Part shown: positions 17,572 through 43,792 of the stretch, in pieces | Numbering within the stretch: position 1 is the first letter of the stretch | How the letters are laid out: each line of letters begins with the position of its first letter | UHGV virus genome: UHGV-0035288 | Origin: a virus | Reading direction: 5' to 3' (one strand) | DNA length: 44,443 bases | Notes under the pieces: generated by a model | Told to the model about the DNA's origin: nothing | The model's database searches: none | The model's input: only the letters and a program-made list of their open reading frames with translations | Position numbers and translations under genes: made by a program

Positions 17572-17677
17572 CTTCTTCGCTCTCCTGTGCCGGTGGTACT
17601 GGTTCTGGCTCCGGTTCTTGTTCCGTCGGCTGTTTAGTATATGCGGCGAGAATAGCCGCCAGTAATGCAGGATTCAT
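17558..17677 (-). CDS. possible small Pro/Glu-rich ORF (39 aa)
   Basis: ATG at 17677 preceded by GGGGGTGA; MNPALLAAILAAYTKQPTEQEPEPEPVPPAQESEEDGGL; stop overlaps next gene start. Fills a 107-nt gap otherwise non-coding. Confidence 0.25.
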   Translation of the reverse strand: MNPALLAAILAAYTKQPTEQEPEPEPVPPAQESEEDGGL

Positions 17678-17678
17678 A

Positions 17679-18179
17679 TCACCCCCGGAATACGTCAAAA
17701 TTACCCGCTGCGTTGCCGTCGGAGTCAATCCAGTGGCCCAGCAAGCCATCCCACCACGGGAACGAGACACCGCTACCAATCGTCGCAGGGTCATATTCCA
17801 TCGTGATCGGGCCAACAGTTTCGCGGATAGTCTCCTTACCACTGCCAACAGGAGAAATATCGACCTCGTCCGCCACCAACATCGCCAACCTGTAAACGGC
17901 TTGCTCGACGGCAATGGGGATTGATGCAAAATCTACGATCTGCCCTGCAGGCACTACTGCCACAACTTCAGTGAGCGTGTCGCGCACCGGCTTACCGTCC
18001 GATGGGTAATTAAGGCGGGGCCATGCGTCGATTCCGGTCTGGTCTGCTTGTTCGCCGATCCAGTTGATGCCGTTAAGGAAGTCGTTAACGATGGTAAGGT
18101 GTCGCGTTGCATCGCCTAGCGTAATTTCAACGCCTCGCGCAGCGGCATAATCGACAAAGGTTTGCGGGTCGCCATACAT
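17679..18179 (-). CDS. head-tail connector protein
   Basis: Track start 18209 lies inside the terminator hairpin; ATG at 18179 has AGGAG SD. 166 aa; first gene after capsid-gene terminator. Confidence 0.5.
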   Translation of the reverse strand: MYGDPQTFVDYAAARGVEITLGDATRHLTIVNDFLNGINWIGEQADQTGIDAWPRLNYPSDGKPVRDTLTEVVAVVPAGQIVDFASIPIAVEQAVYRLAMLVADEVDISPVGSGKETIRETVGPITMEYDPATIGSGVSFPWWDGLLGHWIDSDGNAAGNFDVFRG

Positions 18180-20218: not shown

Positions 20219-20258
20219 CGCTTGCAATCCTTGTATTGGTTGCAATATATTGGTTGCA
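20219..20258 (+). promoter_or_regulatory. promoter region with two tandem TTGGTTGCA motifs upstream of moron
   Basis: TTGGTTGCA at 20236-20244 and 20250-20258; TTGCAA/TATATT hexamers; followed by CACCAACAACGAGGAC leader shared with region 30971-31000. Confidence 0.5.
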
Positions 20259-26379: not shown

Positions 26380-27518
26380 TTCAACATTTCCGGGCTAATG
26401 GTTAAGCGCGCTACTTCGCCGTAGTTGGCGCTATAGGTGATGACGTTTGCGCTGCGACCGGACATCCAACCACCACGACTGGCGTAGGCGTCTTTCGCTG
26501 CGAGCGTCCGGTGCTGTTCAACAATCATGTTGCGAGACTCGACAATCTTCTGGTGGTGCAAATGCCCTACGTGCGCGTAGCTGTATTCGCTTGACCCGAA
26601 CGCCTGTCTGAATTTAGAAATCATGACGGTTTCGATAGCATCAAAGCGCGCTTTGTGCCCGTGGTGGAAAAATAGCGTGGTCTTGCCGTGCTGCACCATT
26701 TTGTAGACGTCCGGGGACGTATCCACATCGACGCGCGGCTCGTTCTCGTACAGCGTGTTGAACATCTCAGCAAGCCAAATCATGCCCGACTCATCATGAT
26801 TCCCCTGGACGATTAGCAGTTTGACTTTGTGGTGTTTTTGCAGCGCCAGTTCGACGACGTTGCGCACCATGCGAATCATGTAGCGGACCAACTTCTGGTA
26901 TCGGGTGTCGGCGTCCAGTATGTGACCACTTGCCGGAGTGACAGCATCGAGGCTATCAAAGTGGGCCATATCACCGAGGATATTAATTACGGCAGTGCCT
27001 GCGTCCGGGGCGCGTGCGAAGGCTTCGACAAACCAGCGGTAGAACAGGTCTTCGGCGATCGCCATATCCCAGTCTTCTCCAGTCTCCTCTCCCCATGCCA
27101 ACATGCCCAGGTGGAAGTCTGACACGGTGTACAGGTTGAGCAAGTCGAGCGCCTGGATCGGTACTGGCGGGGCTTTTACTGGCGCTGCCGGTGTGATTTC
27201 GCTGTTCATCCCCTCGACAACAGCGCGCATGGCTTCGAGTTGGCGCTCTTTGTCCTGCTCAGTGATGACCCACGACATGACCTCTTCGCCATTGCCGCGT
27301 ACCAGGGCGGATACGCGCTTAACCCCGAAGCCATCGGCAACGCGCTTACGGATTACGGCATCGTTACCGTGACCAATACCTTTCTTCGACAGGCGGGCTT
27401 TGCGCATGTAGACGTTTCGTAGGGATAAACCGTACTTCTTAGAAATCTCTTTCGATGTAGCGCCGGATTGTAATTCAGCAATCAATTGCTCGTCGGTGAT
27501 TTTAGTTTGCGGGTGCAT
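26376..27518 (-). CDS. metallophosphoesterase (calcineurin-like) with N-terminal HTH-like region
   Basis: Start moved to ATG 27518 (AGGAAG SD). Phosphoesterase signature blocks GDxHxD-like (ILGDMAHFD), GNHD (IVQGNHDES), GHxH (HVGHLHH). Confidence 0.65.
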   Translation of the reverse strand: MHPQTKITDEQLIAELQSGATSKEISKKYGLSLRNVYMRKARLSKKGIGHGNDAVIRKRVADGFGVKRVSALVRGNGEEVMSWVITEQDKERQLEAMRAVVEGMNSEITPAAPVKAPPVPIQALDLLNLYTVSDFHLGMLAWGEETGEDWDMAIAEDLFYRWFVEAFARAPDAGTAVINILGDMAHFDSLDAVTPASGHILDADTRYQKLVRYMIRMVRNVVELALQKHHKVKLLIVQGNHDESGMIWLAEMFNTLYENEPRVDVDTSPDVYKMVQHGKTTLFFHHGHKARFDAIETVMISKFRQAFGSSEYSYAHVGHLHHQKIVESRNMIVEQHRTLAAKDAYASRGGWMSGRSANVITYSANYGEVARLTISPEMLK

Positions 27519-27579
27519 ATTAATCCACTTCCTGATTATGGGTCCGAGGACAATATACCACGGTCCCGAGTCAAGCAAT

Positions 27580-27603
27580 AAAAAGCCCGGAATTAACCGG
27601 GCT
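27580..27603 (-). terminator. rho-independent terminator
   Basis: GCCCGG-AATTAA-CCGGGC hairpin with T5 on minus strand; downstream of Ig-like gene. Confidence 0.65.
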
Positions 27604-27610
27604 TGTGGTT

Positions 27611-28024
27611 TTATTCTCCTGCTTCCGTTACGGTGAAGATGGCGGACGCCATTGCCCCGCTACCATCGGAGGCCACCCAAAAGATGTGGGCGCTACCTGC
27701 CGTTTGGGCTGTGATTTCTCCGGTAGTCTGATCGATCGCCGCACAGGCAGGATTCGACGACACCCACGACCCGGCCTTGTTAGTCGCGTCGGGTGGCTGG
27801 ACCGCAACCGAAGCGGTGGCCTTCGCACCAACTGCGGCGGATTCCGGTGTGATAGTTACGGTCGCACTTGTCACCGGCTTACTTTCCGGCGGGCTGGGTA
27901 ACTTCGCGTCGAATACCCCCGCATGGCTGATCGTATCCGCTACAATAGCGCGTGCGCCTGGGTCTTCGGTTTTAGCCAGCGCGGCAAGCGCGTCGGCGTT
28001 ATGATCAAGAATACTTTTTAACAT
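27611..28024 (-). CDS. Ig-like (Big_2-type) domain protein
   Basis: 137 aa; C-terminal Thr/Ala/Ser-rich beta-strand pattern typical of bacterial Ig-like domains; downstream of endolysin. Confidence 0.45.
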   Translation of the reverse strand: MLKSILDHNADALAALAKTEDPGARAIVADTISHAGVFDAKLPSPPESKPVTSATVTITPESAAVGAKATASVAVQPPDATNKAGSWVSSNPACAAIDQTTGEITAQTAGSAHIFWVASDGSGAMASAIFTVTEAGE

Positions 28025-30219: not shown

Positions 30220-30368
30220 TTGCTCAGTCTCCGATAGTTATTGTTCAGGGTAAATTGGCTGATAGTGTGGCGGGATTTGGTTTTTGGGTGCATGAGCGTA
30301 ACGCTTCCGTTCCCTTCCCACACCACGAGATAAATCAATCCGGTGGCCTTGCTCTTGACTCGGATCAT
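30216..30368 (-). CDS. small hypothetical protein (50 aa)
   Basis: Identical 17-nt initiation region (GGAGACTGAGCAAATGA) as neighbour; MIRVKSKATGLIYLVVWEGNGSVTLMHPK...; ATGA overlaps on both sides. Confidence 0.4.
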   Translation of the reverse strand: MIRVKSKATGLIYLVVWEGNGSVTLMHPKTKSRHTISQFTLNNNYRRLSK

Positions 30369-30634
30369 TTGCTCAGTCTCCAGTGTTTGCCTACCCGCTC
30401 AACGGCGGGCTTCCGGCGTAATGTAATACGAATGCCAATTGGTTGCAAGGACGTTTTTATGGCTAACCCATGCTCCCTGGCGAACTGGCGCAAGTAGCGG
30501 GTCTGCGTTAATGGCTTCACATCGTCGCGATAGCACCAGAACACAGAATCGCCCTCATTCGCATTCTTAGCCCATATTCGTATGCAATGCAGTGGGATGC
30601 TCCACGAAAGCTGTTTAGCTCGTCTACGGCCCAT
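30365..30634 (-). CDS. hypothetical protein
   Basis: 89 aa; AAGGGG SD then ATG 30634. Confidence 0.5.
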   Translation of the reverse strand: MGRRRAKQLSWSIPLHCIRIWAKNANEGDSVFWCYRDDVKPLTQTRYLRQFAREHGLAIKTSLQPIGIRITLRRKPAVERVGKHWRLSK

Positions 30635-30643
30635 TCTGGCCCC

Positions 30644-30970
30644 TTATTTCGCAAGCTTGGCAAATAGTTCGCGCTGGGCTTTAATCCGGGCAACGTTTGT
30701 CACTGCCTTCTCGCCGATCCCGAAGCGATACGCCAGGCGCTCACGGGCAAATGCCAGCGCGTAGTCCTGGATAGCGTTCGCCAACGGCTGGATCTCTCCC
30801 ATAGTGTCGAAGCGGCGCTCAAGCATACAGGCGATGGCCTGCTGCGTGACGCGAACAACAGACCACGCTGCCGATAGTCTTTCGACCGCTTCCGCTCCTT
30901 CACCGGCGAACTCCGCCGCTTCTTGTGCCGCCGCCATAGCCATTGCGTAATTCCAGATAATCGCTTTCAT
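30644..30970 (-). CDS. hypothetical protein (first gene of leftward small-gene operon)
   Basis: 108 aa; GAGGA SD then ATG 30970; promoter motifs just upstream. Confidence 0.5.
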   Translation of the reverse strand: MKAIIWNYAMAMAAAQEAAEFAGEGAEAVERLSAAWSVVRVTQQAIACMLERRFDTMGEIQPLANAIQDYALAFARERLAYRFGIGEKAVTNVARIKAQRELFAKLAK

Positions 30971-30991
30971 CGTTCAGTCCTCATGTTGGTG

Positions 30992-31031
30992 TGCAACCAA
31001 TATAGCAGGGTGCTGGAGTGGGTGCAACCAA
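30992..31031 (-). promoter_or_regulatory. promoter region with two TTGGTTGCA motifs (minus orientation)
   Basis: TGCAACCAA on plus at 30992-31000 and 31023-31031; same leader (TTGGTTGCACACCAACA..GAGGAC) as upstream of 20281. Confidence 0.5.
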
Positions 31032-31182
31032 TATTAATCACGCGCATGAAAAAGTTGATCGCTATCTGCTGTAACTGCAAACTGCATTTTTCACCCACCA
31101 TTCTGCAACGCGCATTGGTTGCCTAGTTCATCGACGACCGCAATTCGCATCTTGTTGCCGTGCGTTATGCAATCCCGGATTT

Positions 31183-31370
31183 TATGCAGTCTCAGACGAG
31201 GGGGGTGCCAGACCCCCCGTCTAGTCTGAAAGACTGGGGTGCTGTCCCGCTGTCCCGCTCCTCGCCAGGCCGCGTCATCCGGGGCGGGACGGGGGTGCTG
31301 TCCCGCTTTGTCCCGCCCCTGGTCTGTCCCGCTTTTTGTCCCGCTTACTTTATGCAGTTTTATTGCATAA
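31183..31370. repeat. iteron-rich element, copy 2
   Basis: Same hairpin (31188-31237) and TGTCCCGC repeats (31243, 31251, 31299, 31309, 31325, 31337; inverted GCGGGAC at 31284) as 14353-14520; in 480-bp intergenic gap downstream of primase-helicase. Confidence 0.8.
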
Positions 31371-31450
31371 CTATGCATTATACTCACACTACACGGCAAC
31401 CAACACGACCGACTAAAAGCACGCAAAATGGCAACCAATGCGCGCAAAAT

Positions 31451-33725: not shown

Positions 33726-34055
33726 TTACTTAGAAGTTTTATTATTGCGTACCCAGGAGCGCACTGTGCTCTGATTAATTCCGGTCAACTCGGCAATCAT
33801 CGCCCAGGATTTGCCCTCGGCGCGCAAACGGATAACCTGCTTTTTGTATTCTTCCATTTCTTCATTGTGCTTTTGCAGCTTGCTGGCTGCCGTACCGTTG
33901 AGCAATTCCAGCCTGGCGCGTAATTCTTTTTCTACACTGCGCAGGCGCTCTACCTCAAATAGCACCGCCCCAACGGCATCGGTATAAGCCCATGACCGGC
34001 TTGTTTCACTGCTAACAGTCTTCGTTAACATTTCGATTGCGTCGTCGATATTCAT
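33726..34055 (-). CDS. HTH DNA-binding regulator
   Basis: 109 aa; C-terminal helix-turn-helix (SWAMIAELTGINQSTVRSWV); GAGGG SD; first gene of leftward transcription from divergent control region. Confidence 0.55.
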   Translation of the reverse strand: MNIDDAIEMLTKTVSSETSRSWAYTDAVGAVLFEVERLRSVEKELRARLELLNGTAASKLQKHNEEMEEYKKQVIRLRAEGKSWAMIAELTGINQSTVRSWVRNNKTSK

Positions 34056-34458: not shown

Positions 34459-34974
34459 ATGTTTGAACAAATCGTAAACCTGATTACTCGCGGCGTAGTA
34501 GCACTGGAAACCATCGCTAAGCATTATGAAACCGTTGGCGCTGCCGTTGGTAAGCAGGAAGACAAGAAGCCGTCTAAGGTGAAAAAAGAAGTCGTAGAAG
34601 ATGACGACGATGAAACCGAAGACGAAAAACCGGCGAAAACCAAAAAATCCACAGCGAAAGGCAAGGCCAAAAAAGAAGTCGTAGAAGATGACGACGATGA
34701 AGCCGAAGACGAAAAACCAGCGAAGGGTAAAAAAGCTCCGGCGAAAGGCAAAGGCAAGAAAGATGCCGATCCGCTGGCGGAGATGCGCGACGAAATCAAA
34801 CAATATGCCGCTATTATCGCTGGTGGTGACGACGACGACGCGAACGACGAATTTGACGACCTGCTGGAATCGTTCGAGATCAAATCAATCGCCAAGCTGG
34901 AAGATGAAGACGTCGAAGACTTCCACAAAGATCTTAAAGAAATCGTCGAAACTTATTTCGAACTGGAAGATTAA
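34459..34974 (+). CDS. highly acidic tandem-repeat protein (first early gene)
   Basis: GGAGA SD then ATG 34459; 171 aa; duplicated block KEVVEDDDDE(T/A)EDEKPAK (DNA repeat at about 34584-34634 and 34668-34718); strongly acidic overall. Confidence 0.6.
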   Translation: MFEQIVNLITRGVVALETIAKHYETVGAAVGKQEDKKPSKVKKEVVEDDDDETEDEKPAKTKKSTAKGKAKKEVVEDDDDEAEDEKPAKGKKAPAKGKGKKDADPLAEMRDEIKQYAAIIAGGDDDDANDEFDDLLESFEIKSIAKLEDEDVEDFHKDLKEIVETYFELED

Positions 34975-37128: not shown

Positions 37129-37153
37129 CCGCTTAGGCGCAACCAAGTAGATT
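37125..37153 (+). promoter_or_regulatory. sigma70-like promoter (TTGACC-17-TAGATT) with GCAACCAAG motifs
   Basis: -35 at 37125-37130, -10 at 37148-37153; GCAACCAAG at 37137-37147 and 37154-37163. Confidence 0.5.
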
Positions 37154-37218
37154 AGCAACCAAGCCGAACGGGGTGGCTTCCAATAACCCCGATACATGTG
37201 AAAATGAGGAATTGGAAA

Positions 37219-38227: not shown

Positions 38228-40515
38228 AAGACTTCGAACGCCTTTTTCTCGATACCGAGACATTTAGCGGGGTGGACCTGAAGAAAGTGGGCGCATACGC
38301 CTACGCAGAACACCCAACAACCGAGATTATGATTTGCACGTACGCCATAGACGAGGGCCGCGTGCAGACATGGGATTGCACCGAGTCCCCAACAATGCCG
38401 CGTGAACTGCGCAAGGCGCTCCGCCAGGTATCCCGCAAGAAAGCAAAAATAGTGATGGCTAACGGCCTCCTGTTTGACCGCCTGGTTATTCGCGAGAAGT
38501 GGGGCATTGACCTGCCGGTAGGCCAGATCGAGGATACCATGATTATGGCCTTTCGCCACGCGCTGCCGGGTAGCCTCGATATGCAGTGCCAGGTGTTGGG
38601 CGTCGACGCAGAGCACGCGAAGGATAAGGCGGGCAAGGCGCTGATCAAACGATTCTGTAAGCCAACCCCCAAGACCTACAAAATCCGCCGCTACACGCGC
38701 GAGACGCACCCCGAGGAGTGGGCTAAATTCCTGCGCTATGCCGCACTGGATATTATAGCGATGAGGGAAGTCTATTGGCGCATACCGGACTGGGGTAACA
38801 CGCCGAAGGAAGATGAAATCCTGCTTATTGACCAGTTGATCAACGACCGCGGCTTCTATGTGGACGTTGACCTGGCGAACGCCGCGATCAAAGCGGTGCA
38901 GGCGCATAAGGAAGAATTGAAGGAAGAAGCATGGGAGCGCTTCGGCGGTAAGCTGACAGGCAATGACTTCCTGCCAGCGCTGCGCGACCTGGCGCCTGCG
39001 TTCACAATCCACAACGCGCAGAAATCCACGCTTAACGACCTGCTGGAAGACCCGGACTTCCCCGACGAGGGCAAAGTGCTTATCGAGATGCGCCTCGGTG
39101 CGTCATCAACGGCATCGACTAAGTACAATCCGCTCGTTAATGGCTTATCCGCAGATGGTCGCCGTCGTGGGTGTCTCCAGTATGGCGGGGCGAAACGCAC
39201 GCTACGCTGGGCGGGCAAAGGCTTCCAGCCGCAAAACCTGGCACGCGGCGAGTATAGCGACGACCACGAAGGGAAGATTAAGCGCCGTGAAGGCGAGAGC
39301 GACGTTTCTTTTTGGGTCCGGTCGCACATGCTCACCAACGGCATCAACTCCCTGTTACGCGGGACAGCGCACTGGGCGTATGACATATCGAAGTTAACGG
39401 CCTCGACCGTTCGCGGGTGCATTATCCCGGCTAAGGGCAAGAAGTTTGTTGTAGCTGACTATTCTAACGTGGAAGGTCGCGGGCTTGCCTGGATCGCTGG
39501 TGAGAAAACCGCGCTAATGGTGTTTAGGGCGGGTCGCGATATCTATTGTGAAACTGCCGGTAAGATGTTTGGCCTCGACCCGGAATACATCAAAGCCAAC
39601 CGCAAAGACTTACGCCAGATTGGTAAGGCGTGCGAATTGGGGCTGGGTTATGGTGGCGGCGTTGCGGCGTTCCTGCAGTTTGCTAAAAACCTGGGCCTCG
39701 ACCTGTATGCGATGGCGGACGTCATGAAGGGCACATTCCCCGATCATATTTGGGCAGCGGCGAAACGGGGCTATGAATACGCCCGCATTAACGAAGCTAA
39801 GCGCCCGCCGAAGCCTGGCAAGAAAGACGAGCGCCCAACTTACATACTGCCGAAAAACGTGTGGTTGACGTGTGACGCGATCAAACGTATGTGGCGTGAG
39901 GCCCACCCGAAGACGGTAGCCTTTTGGGCAGAGCTTGAGGACGCGGTGTTGTGCGCAATCCGCAATCCGGGCAAAGCATACTGGGCTGGCGCGAACGTTC
40001 GCCCGGATGGTAAGAAAGCGCTCAAGATAGTCCGCACGAAGGCGAAGCATGACCCAACCTTCGACGAGGAGCGCGACGACCCGAACGCCGCAGGGTGGTG
40101 GTTGAAAATTGAGTTGCCGTCAGGGCGCATCATGAGCTATCCGGGCATTGCGCTGTCTGTCACTACCGAGATCGACGAAGATACCGGCAAGAAACGCACC
40201 AGCACCCGCATCAAATACCAGGGCGAGAATCAGACGACGCGCCAGTGGGGCTTCCAGTATACCTACGGCGGCAAACTGACGGAAAACATCGTGCAGGCGC
40301 TGTGTCGCGATATCCTCGCGTGGTCCATGCCTGGCGTTGAAGCCGCGGGGTATGAAATAGTCTTATCAGTGCACGATGAATTGATCACCGAAGTTCCGGA
40401 TACTGACGACTACACTACCGAGGAATTGTGCTCGCTGATGTGTGACCTGCCGATTTGGGCGAAAGGCTTCCCGCTTGCTGCGGAAGGCGACATTATGTAC
40501 AGGTACAGGAAATAA
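38224..40515 (+). CDS. DNA polymerase, family A, with N-terminal 3'-5' exonuclease domain
   Basis: 763 aa; GAGGA SD; Exo I motif FLDTETFSG near N-terminus; polymerase motif C SVHDELITEV near C-terminus. Confidence 0.9.
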   Translation: MKDFERLFLDTETFSGVDLKKVGAYAYAEHPTTEIMICTYAIDEGRVQTWDCTESPTMPRELRKALRQVSRKKAKIVMANGLLFDRLVIREKWGIDLPVGQIEDTMIMAFRHALPGSLDMQCQVLGVDAEHAKDKAGKALIKRFCKPTPKTYKIRRYTRETHPEEWAKFLRYAALDIIAMREVYWRIPDWGNTPKEDEILLIDQLINDRGFYVDVDLANAAIKAVQAHKEELKEEAWERFGGKLTGNDFLPALRDLAPAFTIHNAQKSTLNDLLEDPDFPDEGKVLIEMRLGASSTASTKYNPLVNGLSADGRRRGCLQYGGAKRTLRWAGKGFQPQNLARGEYSDDHEGKIKRREGESDVSFWVRSHMLTNGINSLLRGTAHWAYDISKLTASTVRGCIIPAKGKKFVVADYSNVEGRGLAWIAGEKTALMVFRAGRDIYCETAGKMFGLDPEYIKANRKDLRQIGKACELGLGYGGGVAAFLQFAKNLGLDLYAMADVMKGTFPDHIWAAAKRGYEYARINEAKRPPKPGKKDERPTYILPKNVWLTCDAIKRMWREAHPKTVAFWAELEDAVLCAIRNPGKAYWAGANVRPDGKKALKIVRTKAKHDPTFDEERDDPNAAGWWLKIELPSGRIMSYPGIALSVTTEIDEDTGKKRTSTRIKYQGENQTTRQWGFQYTYGGKLTENIVQALCRDILAWSMPGVEAAGYEIVLSVHDELITEVPDTDDYTTEELCSLMCDLPIWAKGFPLAAEGDIMYRYRK

Positions 40516-40793
40516 TGACACCAGAAGGCAAGATTCAAAGTCACCTGATGCGACGGGTGAAAGAGGTAGGCGGATTCTGCCGCAAAATGGCATGGGAGGG
40601 GCGCGCGGGTGCGCCCGATCTGATTATCATCATCAACGGCAAAATAGTGTTCGTCGAAGTGAAGCGCCCGGGCGGAAAACCGAAGCCACACCAGGTACGC
40701 GAGCATGAGCGGATGGCCCGCCGCGGTGCGGACGTTCGCGTCATAGACAACATCGCCTACTGTGATTTATTGGTTGCTGAATTGGTCGCATAG
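40515..40793 (+). CDS. VRR-NUC domain nuclease
   Basis: ATG 40515 overlaps polymerase stop (TAATG), AGGA SD; 92 aa; PD-(D/E)XK core PDLIIIINGKIVFVEVKRPGGKP...QVREHERM. Confidence 0.65.
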   Translation: MTPEGKIQSHLMRRVKEVGGFCRKMAWEGRAGAPDLIIIINGKIVFVEVKRPGGKPKPHQVREHERMARRGADVRVIDNIAYCDLLVAELVA

Positions 40794-40802
40794 CGGTATA
40801 GT
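40774..40802 (+). promoter_or_regulatory. sigma70-like promoter (TTGCTG-17-TATAGT) overlapping TTGGTTGC motifs
   Basis: TTGGTTGC 40770-40777 and TTGGTCGCA 40782-40790; inside the 3' end of the VRR-NUC gene. Confidence 0.45.
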
Positions 40803-40833
40803 GTGCCGGTTAGCCATATCGAGGATTTTATAG

Positions 40834-41007
40834 ATGATTGAAGAAAAACGTTGCAGTAATTGCGGCTGCGTTAAACCGCTATCCCAGTTCCACAAATACA
40901 CCGGTAAGACTGCACGCAGCCCGGACGGGTATCGTGCCGAGTGCAAATCATGCCGCAATAAAAAAGAGCGCGAACGGCAGCGCCGCTACCGCGCAGAGCA
41001 AAAATAA
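40834..41007 (+). CDS. small Cys-rich zinc-ribbon-like protein (57 aa)
   Basis: GAGGA SD then ATG 40834; CSNCGC...ECKSC then basic tail KKERERQRRYRAEQK; own promoter and terminator; below ORF-track cutoff. Confidence 0.45.
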   Translation: MIEEKRCSNCGCVKPLSQFHKYTGKTARSPDGYRAECKSCRNKKERERQRRYRAEQK

Positions 41008-41014
41008 TTAATAC

Positions 41015-41038
41015 GGCGGGCTTGTCCCGCCATTTTTG
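41015..41038 (+). terminator. rho-independent terminator
   Basis: GGCGGG-CTTGT-CCCGCC hairpin followed by ATTTTT. Confidence 0.6.
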
Positions 41039-41050
41039 GTGGACATGACG

Positions 41051-41269
41051 ATGAAAGATCATTACCGACTCACCAAGCTGGGCGAATGTAAACCGGGCGA
41101 TCGCGTATGGTTTATTGCGGGCATGAATGACCCGCTGCCGTTGACGGTATGCTGGCAAAAATTTAAGAGCTTCCGGGCGACGGGTGTGCACATCGGGCAC
41201 CGCACCAACTACGACGCCACAAAAAGGAATTGGAACAGTGAAACCGAAGTCTGGAAAAAGGCGGAATAA
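41051..41269 (+). CDS. hypothetical protein
   Basis: Track start is TTG 41036; ATG 41051 has GGTGGA SD 7 nt upstream; 72 aa. Confidence 0.45.
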   Translation: MKDHYRLTKLGECKPGDRVWFIAGMNDPLPLTVCWQKFKSFRATGVHIGHRTNYDATKRNWNSETEVWKKAE

Positions 41270-41273
41270 AGAT

Positions 41274-42698
41274 ATGGCACGTTTCCGACGTCGCGAATAT
41301 CAGAAGTTGATAACCGCGTTCATCCTCAAGCATAAGCGATGCAATATATGGGCGACAATGGGGTCGGGTAAAACCGGCGCGACTATGTGGGCGCTGAATA
41401 AAATGTTCCAGACTGGTATCCTGTCCAACCAGGAGGACCGAGTATTGGTGCTGGCCCCGCTGCGCGTTGCATCCGGCACATGGCCCCCGGAACAGGAAAA
41501 ATGGCGCTTCCCCGCCTTGCTGGTAGTAGATGGCACTGGGTCGGAGAAGGACCGCATCGCCGCGCTTGAGAGCGACGCTAACGTGGTTTGTATCAACTAT
41601 GATGTAGTTGAGTGGCTTGTTGAGTATTGCGGCGACGAGTGGCCCTTTACGGTCGTGGTTGCCGATGAATCAACTAAGCTGAAAGGCTATCGAAGCAAGC
41701 AGGGGAGTAAGCGCGCCCGTGCGCTGGCAGCGATCGCACATAAGCGCGTCAAGCGCTGGATTAACCTAACCGGCACACCCGCACCAAACGGACTGAAAGA
41801 CCTATGGGGTCAGACGTGGTTTGTCGACGGTGGCGAACGCCTCGGCAGTAGCTATAAGGCATTCACGGATCGCTGGTTTATTAGCAAGCCGGTTAAGCCT
41901 GGCAGCTTCACTATGCAGCACGCCCCGCTAAAAAACTCCGAGAAAGAAATACAACAACGTCTGTCCGACGTATCCCTTACCGTTGACGCGGCTGAATACT
42001 TCGGATGTGACAAGCCAATCTATACGCCTGTTGTTGTGGACCTGCCTAAGAAAGCCCGCAAAATATACGACCAGTTCGAAGCGGAGCTATTTGCTGAACT
42101 GGAAAGCGGAACTGTGGAGGCCGCGAACGCTGCGTCGAAGACTATTAAGTGCCTTCAGCTTGCTTCGGGTGCCGTGTATAAAGTCGACGAAGACGGCGAG
42201 CGCACTGATGAATGGGTGAAAATTCACGACGCCAAACTGGACGCGCTGGAAAGTATCGTGGAGGAGTTGAACGGCGCGCCGTTGCTCGTCGCATACCAGT
42301 ACAAGCATGATCTGGCGCGTCTCAAGAAGAAATTCCCGCACGGCGTAGCGATGGGTAAGGGTAAGCAAGGGAATAAGGATATGGAAGCGTGGAACAGGGG
42401 CGAGATCCCCATCATGTTTGCACACCCGGCATCGGCGGGTCACGGACTTAACCTGCAGGACGGCGGACACCACCTTGCTATCTTCTCAGACACATGGAAC
42501 TTTGAGCACTTTTCGCAGATCGTGGAGCGTATCGGGCCGGTTCGCCAGATGCAAGCCGGGCACCCCCGTCCAGTATTTGTCTACATTATCCAGGCGCGCG
42601 GCACACTGGACGAACTGGTCGCCGAGCGTCGCGACAGTAAGCGCGATATTCAGGACGATTTGATGGAATACATGAAAGCTAAAAAGGCGCGCAAATGA
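41274..42698 (+). CDS. SNF2-family (DEAD/DEAH-like) helicase/ATPase
   Basis: Start moved to ATG 41274; 474 aa; Walker A MGSGKTGAT, DExx box VVADESTKLKG. Confidence 0.8.
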   Translation: MARFRRREYQKLITAFILKHKRCNIWATMGSGKTGATMWALNKMFQTGILSNQEDRVLVLAPLRVASGTWPPEQEKWRFPALLVVDGTGSEKDRIAALESDANVVCINYDVVEWLVEYCGDEWPFTVVVADESTKLKGYRSKQGSKRARALAAIAHKRVKRWINLTGTPAPNGLKDLWGQTWFVDGGERLGSSYKAFTDRWFISKPVKPGSFTMQHAPLKNSEKEIQQRLSDVSLTVDAAEYFGCDKPIYTPVVVDLPKKARKIYDQFEAELFAELESGTVEAANAASKTIKCLQLASGAVYKVDEDGERTDEWVKIHDAKLDALESIVEELNGAPLLVAYQYKHDLARLKKKFPHGVAMGKGKQGNKDMEAWNRGEIPIMFAHPASAGHGLNLQDGGHHLAIFSDTWNFEHFSQIVERIGPVRQMQAGHPRPVFVYIIQARGTLDELVAERRDSKRDIQDDLMEYMKAKKARK

Positions 42699-43390
42699 TA
42701 ATCTGGTCATTGTTTGACGGCAGCGGCTTGATGATTGAGCGTGCTGCCGAGGTGGGGCATAAGTGTTATTGCTTCAACTACTCCGAAGCCGACCACGGGT
42801 CGTACCTGGACTACCGGATTTATGGTCGCGGGATCCGATATCGCAATGAGTTTATTGATCTTGACTTTGTAGACCGCGCGATGAATGGCGATTTCGGTAC
42901 GCCGGATATCATCTACGCATTCCCGCCGTGTACTGATCTGGCGGTGAGCGGTGCACCAGCTTTCCCGCGTAAGCGTGCAAAAGACCCCGCCTTTCAGCTT
43001 AAGGCGGTGCGCACCGCGAAGATCGCCGCTTACCTGGGTGACTTCTTCGAAGTGCCATATATGATTGAGAATCCGCGCAGCGTGCTTTCCACACAGTGGC
43101 GTAAGCCAGACCACTCGTTTGACCCGTGGGAGTATGGTGGCTATCTGCCGGAGGATGACGTACACCCGTTGTTCCCGGAATACATCAACGCCCGCGATTC
43201 ATATCCGAAGCTGACCTGCTTATGGACCGGCAACGGCTTCCGTATGCCCGAGAAGAAACCTGTTTTCGTTGAAAAAGGGTACTCGAAGCAGTATAGTCGC
43301 CTCGGTGGTAAATCCGCTCGTACAAAATTAATCCGCTCACTCACCCCGCGCGGCTTCGCGATAGCAGTCAATGAGGAAAATTTAAAATGA
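42695..43390 (+). CDS. short DNA cytosine-C5 methyltransferase-like protein
   Basis: 231 aa; ATGA coupling to helicase; motif I-like SLFDGSG, motif IV-like FPPCTDLAVSG (catalytic Pro-Cys), ENV-like IENPRSV; too short for a canonical target-recognition domain. Confidence 0.5.
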   Translation: MIIWSLFDGSGLMIERAAEVGHKCYCFNYSEADHGSYLDYRIYGRGIRYRNEFIDLDFVDRAMNGDFGTPDIIYAFPPCTDLAVSGAPAFPRKRAKDPAFQLKAVRTAKIAAYLGDFFEVPYMIENPRSVLSTQWRKPDHSFDPWEYGGYLPEDDVHPLFPEYINARDSYPKLTCLWTGNGFRMPEKKPVFVEKGYSKQYSRLGGKSARTKLIRSLTPRGFAIAVNEENLK

Positions 43391-43710: not shown

Positions 43711-43715
43711 ATTGG

Positions 43716-43744
43716 TTGCATAATCATATTGGTTGCATTATATT
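43716..43744 (+). promoter_or_regulatory. sigma70-like promoter (TTGCAT-17-TATATT) built from two tandem ATTGGTTGCA motifs
   Basis: Motifs at 43712-43720 and 43729-43737; -35 at 43716-43721, -10 at 43739-43744. Confidence 0.55.
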
Positions 43745-43746
43745 GA

Positions 43747-43773
43747 GGGTGTCCGGTTGGGACGCCCTTTTTT
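43747..43773 (+). terminator. terminator-like hairpin immediately downstream of promoter
   Basis: GGGTGTCC-GGTT-GGACGCCC stem (one G-T wobble) followed by T6 (43768-43773). Confidence 0.5.
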
Positions 43774-43792
43774 AATACCTGGAGACAACACG

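Follow-up and report, generated by a model that had tools for sequence, protein, structure and literature searches.

We studied a small gene in UHGV virus genome UHGV-0035288, a stretch of 44,443 nucleotides (nt; "the window" below always means this whole stretch) that is a Dhillonvirus-type E. coli siphophage. The gene encodes a protein of 57 amino acids (aa), MIEEKRCSNCGCVKPLSQFHKYTGKTARSPDGYRAECKSCRNKKERERQRRYRAEQK, a zinc ribbon whose four cysteines are arranged as C7-x2-C10 ... C37-x2-C40 and whose tail is basic, with nine Lys/Arg against three Asp/Glu past the last Cys and a net charge of +10 for the protein as a whole. The original prediction, made from the sequence alone, had described it as a self-contained mini-cistron within the phage replication operon. 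The features at the locus, in window coordinates, are as follows.

40834..41007, plus strand, stop codon included: gene for the 57-aa Cys4 zinc-ribbon protein, supported by coding bias, a model and 27 homologues
40821-40825, plus strand: Shine-Dalgarno sequence GAGGA, 8 nt 5' of the ATG
40774..40802, plus strand: promoter-like element, with TTGCTG (40774-40779; −35-like at 3 of 6 positions), a 17-nt spacer and TATAGT (40797-40802; −10-like at 5 of 6)
40770..40778, plus strand: first degenerate copy, TTGGTTGCT, of a recurrent 9-mer; its last bases contribute to the −35-like hexamer
40782..40790, plus strand: second degenerate copy, TTGGTCGCA, in the promoter spacer, 3 nt past the first
41015-41031, plus strand, with a T-run at 41033-41037: intrinsic-terminator-like hairpin, GGCGGG-CTTGT-CCCGCC followed by A and TTTTT
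40515..40793, plus strand: upstream VRR-NUC nuclease gene (Pfam VRR_NUC, E = 5.9e-6; phrog_93; coordinates per the NHEP3 annotation)
41051..41269, plus strand: downstream 72-aa gene (phrog_9291), with the SNF2 helicase gene next

Results

The open reading frame (ORF) at 40834..41007 is almost certainly a real, expressed gene. In the phage genome collection, 154 records match window positions 40400-41400, with identities of 80-97% that reach at least 90% in 150 records, and an alignment was made of the window with 17 relatives (3 from GenBank and 14 from IMG/VR). Among the close relatives in this alignment, codon position 3 holds 30 of the 37 variable ORF columns, and the ratio of nonsynonymous to synonymous polymorphism (pN/pS) is 0.054 over 15 distinct alleles; the ORF is under strong purifying selection. 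The prediction of a CxxC...CxxC protein with a basic tail is borne out. The Cys spacing, whose loss in relatives would have counted against it, is invariant in a set of 27 stand-alone homologues that extends down to ~40% identity. The Shine-Dalgarno sequence, which had been called a good one, likewise holds up, with one of its five columns variable and GAGG retained in every one of the 17 relatives. An in-frame TAG at 40831-40833, immediately 5' of the ATG, rules out a longer N terminus in the window genome. Most relatives have GAG at this position, and longer products starting at an upstream GTG are annotated in some of them (68 aa in JLBYU37, L002 2093-2299; 102 aa in Opt212); because the TAG of the window shows the 57-aa form to be sufficient, these longer starts are probably wrong.

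As most related GenBank genomes carry the ORF in their annotation, it does not represent a new gene call. It is mostly annotated as "hypothetical protein," and elsewhere as "Lar-like restriction alleviation protein," "putative meiotic chromosome segregation protein," "kilA anti-repressor protein" or "HNH endonuclease"; UniProt contains an identical, uncharacterized protein from Shigella phage EP23. In Edwardsiella phage eiAU (KF772233.1; locus L039 in our numbering), a clear homologue (77.9 bits by hidden Markov model [HMM]) lies at ~17676-17812 on the minus strand and is unannotated in the GenBank records. A literature search found no Dhillonvirus transcriptome or usable proteome and no translation data for any Dhillonvirus.

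The promoter-like element shares sequence with the final codons of VRR-NUC, as had been predicted. Taken by itself, it is no better than chance. It nevertheless constrains the synonymous sites of the overlapping gene: beneath it, 2 of 9 VRR-NUC synonymous sites are variable, as compared to 15 of 21 directly upstream (Fisher p = 0.02) and 40 of 57 in the zinc-ribbon ORF (p = 0.009). Positions 40770..40778 are invariant across close Dhillonvirus relatives but for a single change, at 40778 in L016, a locus in which the second 9-mer copy is also conserved, and tandem copies with a 3-nt gap recur in L030/L031 (CTGGTTGCTgctCTGGTTGCG). The geometry extends much further. TGGTTGC-N19-TAnnnT (that is, TGGTTGCN-N18-TAnnnT) stands 57-63 nt 5' of the zinc-ribbon start codon in the window and of its counterpart in loci L016, L030/31, L032 (as a TGATTGC variant), L034, L036 and L037, the background of TAnnnT being ~0.0095 per position; the zinc-ribbon proteins of L030/31, L032, L034, L036 and L037 are just 40-65% identical to that of the window, and their upstream neighbor is VRR-NUC or PolA. 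In eiAU the same element occurs at 18153 (minus strand), at the end of the post-PolA gene gp36, which occupies the VRR-NUC position one gene 5' of the zinc-ribbon gene, and Serratia phage Smarc3 has a canonical TTGACA-17-TATAGT ahead of its zinc-ribbon gene. The hexamers and their spacing are thus conserved at a fixed distance beyond neutral expectation, as for a sigma-70-type promoter. The synonymous-site constraint, the geometry shared by six divergent lineages and the eiAU and Smarc3 sites together rescue what is a weak match, and suggest that the predicted promoter in front of the zinc-ribbon gene is a feature of the gene conserved across lineages.

The hairpin starts 8 nt past the stop codon and consists of six G-C pairs and a 5-nt loop with a T-run directly after, the form of an intrinsic terminator; the terminator scan detected it on either strand. 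Among the 17 relatives, one of its 17 columns is variable, and this column is located in the loop. The stem is invariant, which supports the predicted terminator within Dhillonvirus, and L016 retains the stem with a six-T run. No compensatory changes that would support the pairing were found among these relatives, the folding energy is unremarkable (−12.1 kcal/mol, z = −0.95), and the 5-kb region holds no excess of terminator-like sites (7 versus 5.2 ± 2.3 expected). The T-run is followed after only ~13 nt by the start codon at 41051, with no promoter-like site in between, so transcription of the 72-aa, SNF2 helicase and methylase genes requires read-through of the hairpin. We infer that it would attenuate transcription and thereby give a higher dose of the small protein than of the products downstream.

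How far the unit is self-contained depends on the lineage. Within Dhillonvirus the description stands, with the promoter-like element, the Shine-Dalgarno sequence and the hairpin all in place, and the L030/31 layout is comparable, with a promoter-like pair and a strong terminator 3' of the gene. It does not stand for the family overall, as the hairpin is missing from the L032, L034, L036, L037 and L038 loci, in which the zinc-ribbon gene overlaps or abuts the one that follows; the overlap in L032, L036, L037 and L038 amounts to 1-8 nt, without any terminator. The conserved feature is therefore the predicted promoter ahead of the gene rather than an isolated cistron, and the hairpin is lineage-specific.

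The 27 stand-alone homologues, which are 54-89 aa long, share invariant K5, C7, C10, K14, D31, G32, C37 and C40 and near-invariant P15, F19 and K38, along with the signature EFHKYxGxxxRSxDGYRAxCKxCRN followed by a basic tail; all 27 carry a net charge of +4 to +16. An exhaustive HMM search recovered 2422 representative proteins at E ≤ 1e-3 (best matches down to E = 7e-22), most of which are 200-600 aa long with two to nine tandem copies of the module, and the consensus of 117 such multi-repeat relatives is the same, K-x-C-x2-C-x3-KP-x3-F-x7-DG-x4-CK-x-C. Scanned with Pfam, these 117 match Stc1 (74), DUF6510 (47), HNH (18), Endonuclease_7 (16) and HNH_5 (14). The 57-aa protein itself displays the Stc1/DUF6510-type signature (Cys4 with a Lys ahead of the first Cys, KP past the first knuckle, an aromatic residue, DG and CKxC) and scores below the gathering thresholds, with 13.6 bits against a cut-off of 26.4 for DUF6510 and no Stc1 match at E ≤ 1. 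Its membership consequently rests on its relatives, and Stc1 is a two-finger domain while the query has one finger. Nothing above threshold was found in NCBIfam (there was one sub-threshold archaeal zinc-finger match), and a PDB sequence search found no solved-structure relative. The best PHROG match is phrog_5558, "Lar-like restriction alleviation protein" (E = 6.5e-17), with several endonuclease VII and HNH families next. We found no paper on DUF6510 and none connecting Stc1 to phage HNH endonucleases.

AlphaFold2, run with the family alignment, gave a model with a predicted local distance difference test score of 90.4, in which short strands at the two CxxC knuckles are followed by a helix at residues 38-56. 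The nearest solved folds are the zinc-braced beta-beta-alpha-Me cores of Hpy99I (3fc3) and PacI (3m7k), and also the Cas9 HNH domain, so that the model has the beta-beta-alpha, often zinc-braced, fold of HNH nucleases. Structural matches in BFVD have template-modeling scores of 0.7-0.9; the named ones are mostly phage or giant-virus HNH or beta-beta-alpha-Me endonucleases, and many others are unnamed or uncharacterized. An HNH nuclease is expected to have an invariant catalytic His (the general base) that follows Asp, His or Asn, and an Asn or His in the helix as metal ligand. The positions of the HNH active site are not conserved: among the 27 homologues H20 is present in 19 (otherwise Ser, Gly or Val), N42 in 19 and E45 in 17, Phe or Tyr occupies position 19 throughout, and the query has no Pfam HNH or Endonuclease_7 match. 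In our reading, accordingly, the protein is related to the HNH scaffold but is not a nuclease. There is no significant sequence similarity to Hpy99I or PacI, whose catalytic His and metal ligands are unconserved in the family and which are three times the size of the window protein; the latter has no further domain.

One copy of the same module was seen in loci L018, L020, L022, L024 and L029 (IMG/VR contigs of 30-143 kb), at the C terminus of ~360-aa proteins (…KKCSRCGxxKLxxxxFxxNKTSxDGWYSICKSCRNKK), and in L025-L028 within an 88-codon open frame of related sequence. A "sigma factor" label attached to the ~360-aa proteins (phrog_5767) was not accepted, since they have no Pfam sigma domain.

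In all lineages examined (the window, L030/31, L032, L034, L036, L037, L038, eiAU, Smarc3 and VSiP), PolA is found upstream of the zinc-ribbon gene, and in eleven lineages the gene is flanked by PolA on one side and by SNF2 helicase or methylase genes on the other. Its 5' neighbor is usually VRR-NUC-like, and 3' of it come either methylases or a 65-72-aa ORF with the SNF2 helicase. The gene belongs to the phage DNA-metabolism module. The Kagunaviruses K1G and Snoke have PolA (61-65% identity), VRR-NUC and SNF2, and no zinc-ribbon homologue was detectable in them. Some Dhillonviruses carry an extra ORF between PolA and VRR-NUC (64 aa in JLBYU37, L002 1619-1810; 200 aa in PNS1, L003 1682-2284), and split or intein-containing PolA genes occur in other relatives (AV129, S528 and L036); the PolA neighborhood looks like a hot spot of mobile insertions. 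No Rfam family was found in the whole window.

The 9-mer TTGGTTGCA, of which degenerate copies lie at the promoter-like element, had been noted as a motif, and its enrichment was confirmed. The window has 11 exact copies versus 0.44 expected (~25-fold), and 24 copies with at most one mismatch versus 11.25 ± 3.3 expected, a count reached in none of 100 shuffles. Sites are at 1190-1211, 4141, 20236-20258, 30284-31438, 34244, 37138-37162, 40770-40790 and 43712-43737. The copies are intergenic, mostly point in the direction of the downstream gene and are often paired. At three window sites (40771, 43713 and, on the minus strand, 31030) and at three eiAU sites, the geometry is TGGTTGCN-N18-TAnnnT; the 18-nt distance to TAnnnT would place the box at about −39..−31. 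The remaining copies overlap the −10/+1 region. Taken together, TTGGTTGCA is probably a promoter or operator class. Clusters of it, with copies in both orientations, occur just 3' of the primase-helicase gene (window 30284-31438; eiAU 26874-27634, with ~11 copies in 760 bp), and eiAU has a further cluster at its genome end (42938-43015); these could be an early-promoter array or an iteron-type replication origin.

Occurrence of the motif follows occurrence of the gene in part. Observed and expected numbers of TTGGTTGCA are 11/0.44 in the window, 11/0.45 in NHEP3, 14/0.38 in eiAU and 8/0.40 in Smarc3, all of which carry the gene, as compared to 1/0.43 in both K1G and Snoke, which do not; the motif co-occurs in four of five genomes with the gene versus none of two without it. 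Gene-bearing metagenomic loci contain three to eight copies of TGGTTGC versus ~1.2 expected, and in at least seven lineages the gene's own predicted promoter carries the motif. The only non-structural genes common to eiAU and Smarc3 and absent from K1G and Snoke are a methyltransferase (44-526), an ORF at 34459-34971 and the zinc-ribbon gene. On these sequence comparisons, the link between motif and gene is suggestive. Small zinc-ribbon proteins had been described in the original prediction as often being transcription regulators or polymerase-binding factors; such a role may apply here, the circumstantial evidence being the link to the motif. Covariation of zinc-ribbon residues with the motif was also considered, and R28/S29 differ in the two lineages in which the motif is deviant or absent, but these are too few lineages to use.

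Two further observations on repeated sequences were made. At 43712-43775 of the window, a promoter-like pair, TTGGTTGCA-N8-TTGGTTGCA-T-TATATT, leads directly into a terminator-like hairpin, GGGTGTCC-GGTT-GGGACGCCC, with TTTTTT after it; as the predicted start lies within the 5' arm, the hairpin could stop transcripts arriving from upstream and not those begun there. The same promoter-hairpin layout is found directly after the zinc-ribbon gene in L030/L031. Separately, two pairs of 8-mers are over-represented ~10-fold on both strands of the window, GTTGCCGT/ACGGCAAC (26 versus 2.3 expected) and GCTGCCGT/ACGGCAGC (24 versus 2.4 expected), with a similar excess in K1G, Snoke and VSiP.

Discussion

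The gene described here is an uncharacterized stand-alone member of a known zinc-ribbon module, and its layout of promoter, gene and terminator is ordinary. The related modules of Stc1 and DUF6510 type (PF12898, PF20120; PHROGs 1035, 2255, 2340 and 2633) share K-x-C-x2-C-x3-KP-x3-F ... DG-x4-CK-x-C and the helix that follows; Stc1 of S. pombe is a tandem version that serves protein-protein contacts. Unlike the tandem modules, the window protein is a single, nuclease-free copy with three to four extra residues and its own signature, FHKYxG...RSxDGYRA, and its gene has a fixed position in the replication module and apparently a promoter-like site of its own. The protein quite probably binds nucleic acid. 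Zinc binding, DNA binding and the activities of the promoter and terminator are likewise inferred.

Tentatively, we propose that the protein, expressed from a TTGGTTGC-type promoter of its own, binds DNA at TTGGTTGCA sites and serves there as a small regulator. Transcription would start from this promoter, with the phage-specific TTGGTTGC element in the end of VRR-NUC as its −35 region, and translation from the good Shine-Dalgarno sequence; in Dhillonvirus a moderate intrinsic terminator would then leave the small protein in excess over the 72-aa protein, the SNF2 helicase and the methylases, which would be made by read-through. The product would be a non-catalytic, zinc-braced beta-beta-alpha ribbon (HNH-like, Stc1/DUF6510-type) with a long Arg/Lys-rich C-terminal helix, a stand-alone copy of the module that is tandem in homing-type HNH and endonuclease VII proteins, where it presumably binds DNA. 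Such a protein may read DNA sequence, its most likely target being the TTGGTTGCA-type sites at its own promoter and at ~10 other intergenic positions, and it would then control a promoter class that includes its own promoter. That the motif is the target of the zinc-ribbon protein is speculative. The boldest form of the proposal, which we consider unlikely, is that the 57-aa ribbon is the trans-acting reader of the TTGGTTGCA box (at −39..−31, and also near +1 and in the primase-helicase clusters), a minimal MotA/CII-like specificity or switch factor that would descend from the module with which homing HNH endonucleases target DNA and would be common to Dhillonvirus, Eiauvirus and several uncultured siphophage lineages. 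The T4 MotA box and the lambda CII site TTGC-N6-TTGC are −35-region boxes through which phage factors read a promoter class. TTGGTTGCA resembles them as a short asymmetric box at a fixed 18 nt from TAnnnT, in front of several genes and often in direct repeats; it differs in that the zinc-ribbon protein is homologous to neither factor and host sigma-70 alone may suffice.

Several observations weigh against this proposal. The promoter-like element matches the sigma-70 consensus at only 8 of 12 positions (TTGCTG-17-TATAGT), below the ≥9/12 to TTGACA-N16-18-TATAAT that our generic scan demanded, and for this reason the scan did not list it. VSiP has a divergent zinc-ribbon homologue (46.7 bits, without the RSxDG signature) and no TTGGTTGCA (0/0.46), and L032 has the gene and no copy of TGGTTGC, a variant motif being found beside the gene only. 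The motif-gene link is carried by few, non-independent genomes (seven, with no phylogenetic correction), and shared descent may explain it. A helix-turn-helix protein at 33726-34055 (minus strand; phrog_9366/phrog_3855), which adjoins the early divergent region, is a conventional rival candidate for binding the motif, and the motif itself could be merely a −35 variant of host sigma-70 promoters, as the TTGACA-17-TATAGT of Smarc3 would suggest. Finally, the conserved synteny equally fits a replication or recombination accessory role.

This accessory role, in which the protein would bind DNA without sequence specificity or would load, target or stabilize a partner (PolA, VRR-NUC or SNF2) and TTGGTTGCA would be unrelated, is the alternative that survives best, and we regard it as possible, though on balance rather doubtful. 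The position between PolA and the SNF2 helicase or methylase genes is invariant, the overlap with the SNF2 start in L032 and L036 suggests coupled translation, the protein is strongly positively charged, and the module is typically joined to DNA enzymes. Synteny is, however, the sole specific evidence, and it has exceptions in both directions: K1G and Snoke possess the same PolA, VRR-NUC and SNF2 without the gene, so these enzymes do not need the zinc ribbon, and L030 and L037 retain the gene without an adjacent SNF2 or VRR-NUC.

It is improbable that the protein is a domesticated leftover of a homing endonuclease, i.e., a nuclease-less HNH/endonuclease VII DNA-binding module that shields a target site or competes with related endonucleases. 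All close relatives in sequence and structure are indeed HNH/endonuclease VII modules, and insertions are found around PolA (the extra ORFs of JLBYU37 and PNS1, HNH_3 genes flanking the L030 locus, and split or intein-containing PolA genes). The low pN/pS, the stable length and a signature of its own kept down to ~40% identity nevertheless speak for a dedicated function held over a long time and against a remnant of recent origin, and no nuclease-bearing intermediate was found at the zinc-ribbon locus.

A minimal active HNH-type nuclease is very improbable. In such a protein, H20 at the end of a beta-strand and N42 and E45 at the start of the helix would, with the Cys4 site, mimic the endonuclease VII/HNH site, and both the beta-beta-alpha-Me cores of Hpy99I, PacI and Cas9 HNH among the nearest folds and the H-x17-CxxC ... 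N-x3-E spacing of T4 endonuclease VII, which is similar, would fit. The incomplete conservation of these three residues is hard to reconcile with catalysis; moreover, all members have Phe or Tyr where an acidic or Asn residue would be expected to precede the His, and the consensus of the multi-repeat modules is without any His.

Other identities were considered and rejected. For KilA or an anti-repressor, there is no KilA-N or Ant/Bro match in Pfam or PHROG (one of the 117 relatives has Bro-N, as a separate domain). Ksap1 (PMC11564622) and anti-Tmn (PMC11846954), both small proteins of Dhillonvirus that have been studied experimentally, are the products of different genes; anti-Tmn is a helical protein, ORF35 of phiSMS22. 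A Lar-like restriction-alleviation protein is the least credible of all: despite the best PHROG match and the use of this name in Pharokka-style annotations of NHEP3, phiEco273, Bas83 and Bas85, the phrog_5558 alignment covers only positions 62-113 of 130 in the profile, Pfam Lar_restr_allev (PF14354) gives no match at E ≤ 1 and matches one of 117 relatives, hhalign against a genuine PF14354 protein gives a probability of 2.7% with the alignment at the CxxCG knuckle alone, the L038 phage encodes a separate Lar-family gene alongside its zinc-ribbon gene, and Lar of the Rac prophage, though also a small phage-encoded protein with a CxxC zinc knuckle, is non-homologous by HMM and profile-profile tests.

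Should the gene turn out to be no more than a conserved hypothetical, the benefit would lie in annotation. Public Dhillonvirus genomes carry the unsupported labels "Lar-like," "kilA anti-repressor," "HNH endonuclease" and "meiotic chromosome segregation protein," several records use over-long starts, and the eiAU record misses the gene. If the link of the gene to the motif is true, the protein would be a very small, tractable DNA-reading module of one zinc ribbon and one basic helix, and it would identify what regulates a promoter class in a genus much used for defense-system research (BASEL Bas14-18, SECphi18). It would also hint at the role of the tandem zinc-ribbon arrays in thousands of HNH homing endonucleases.

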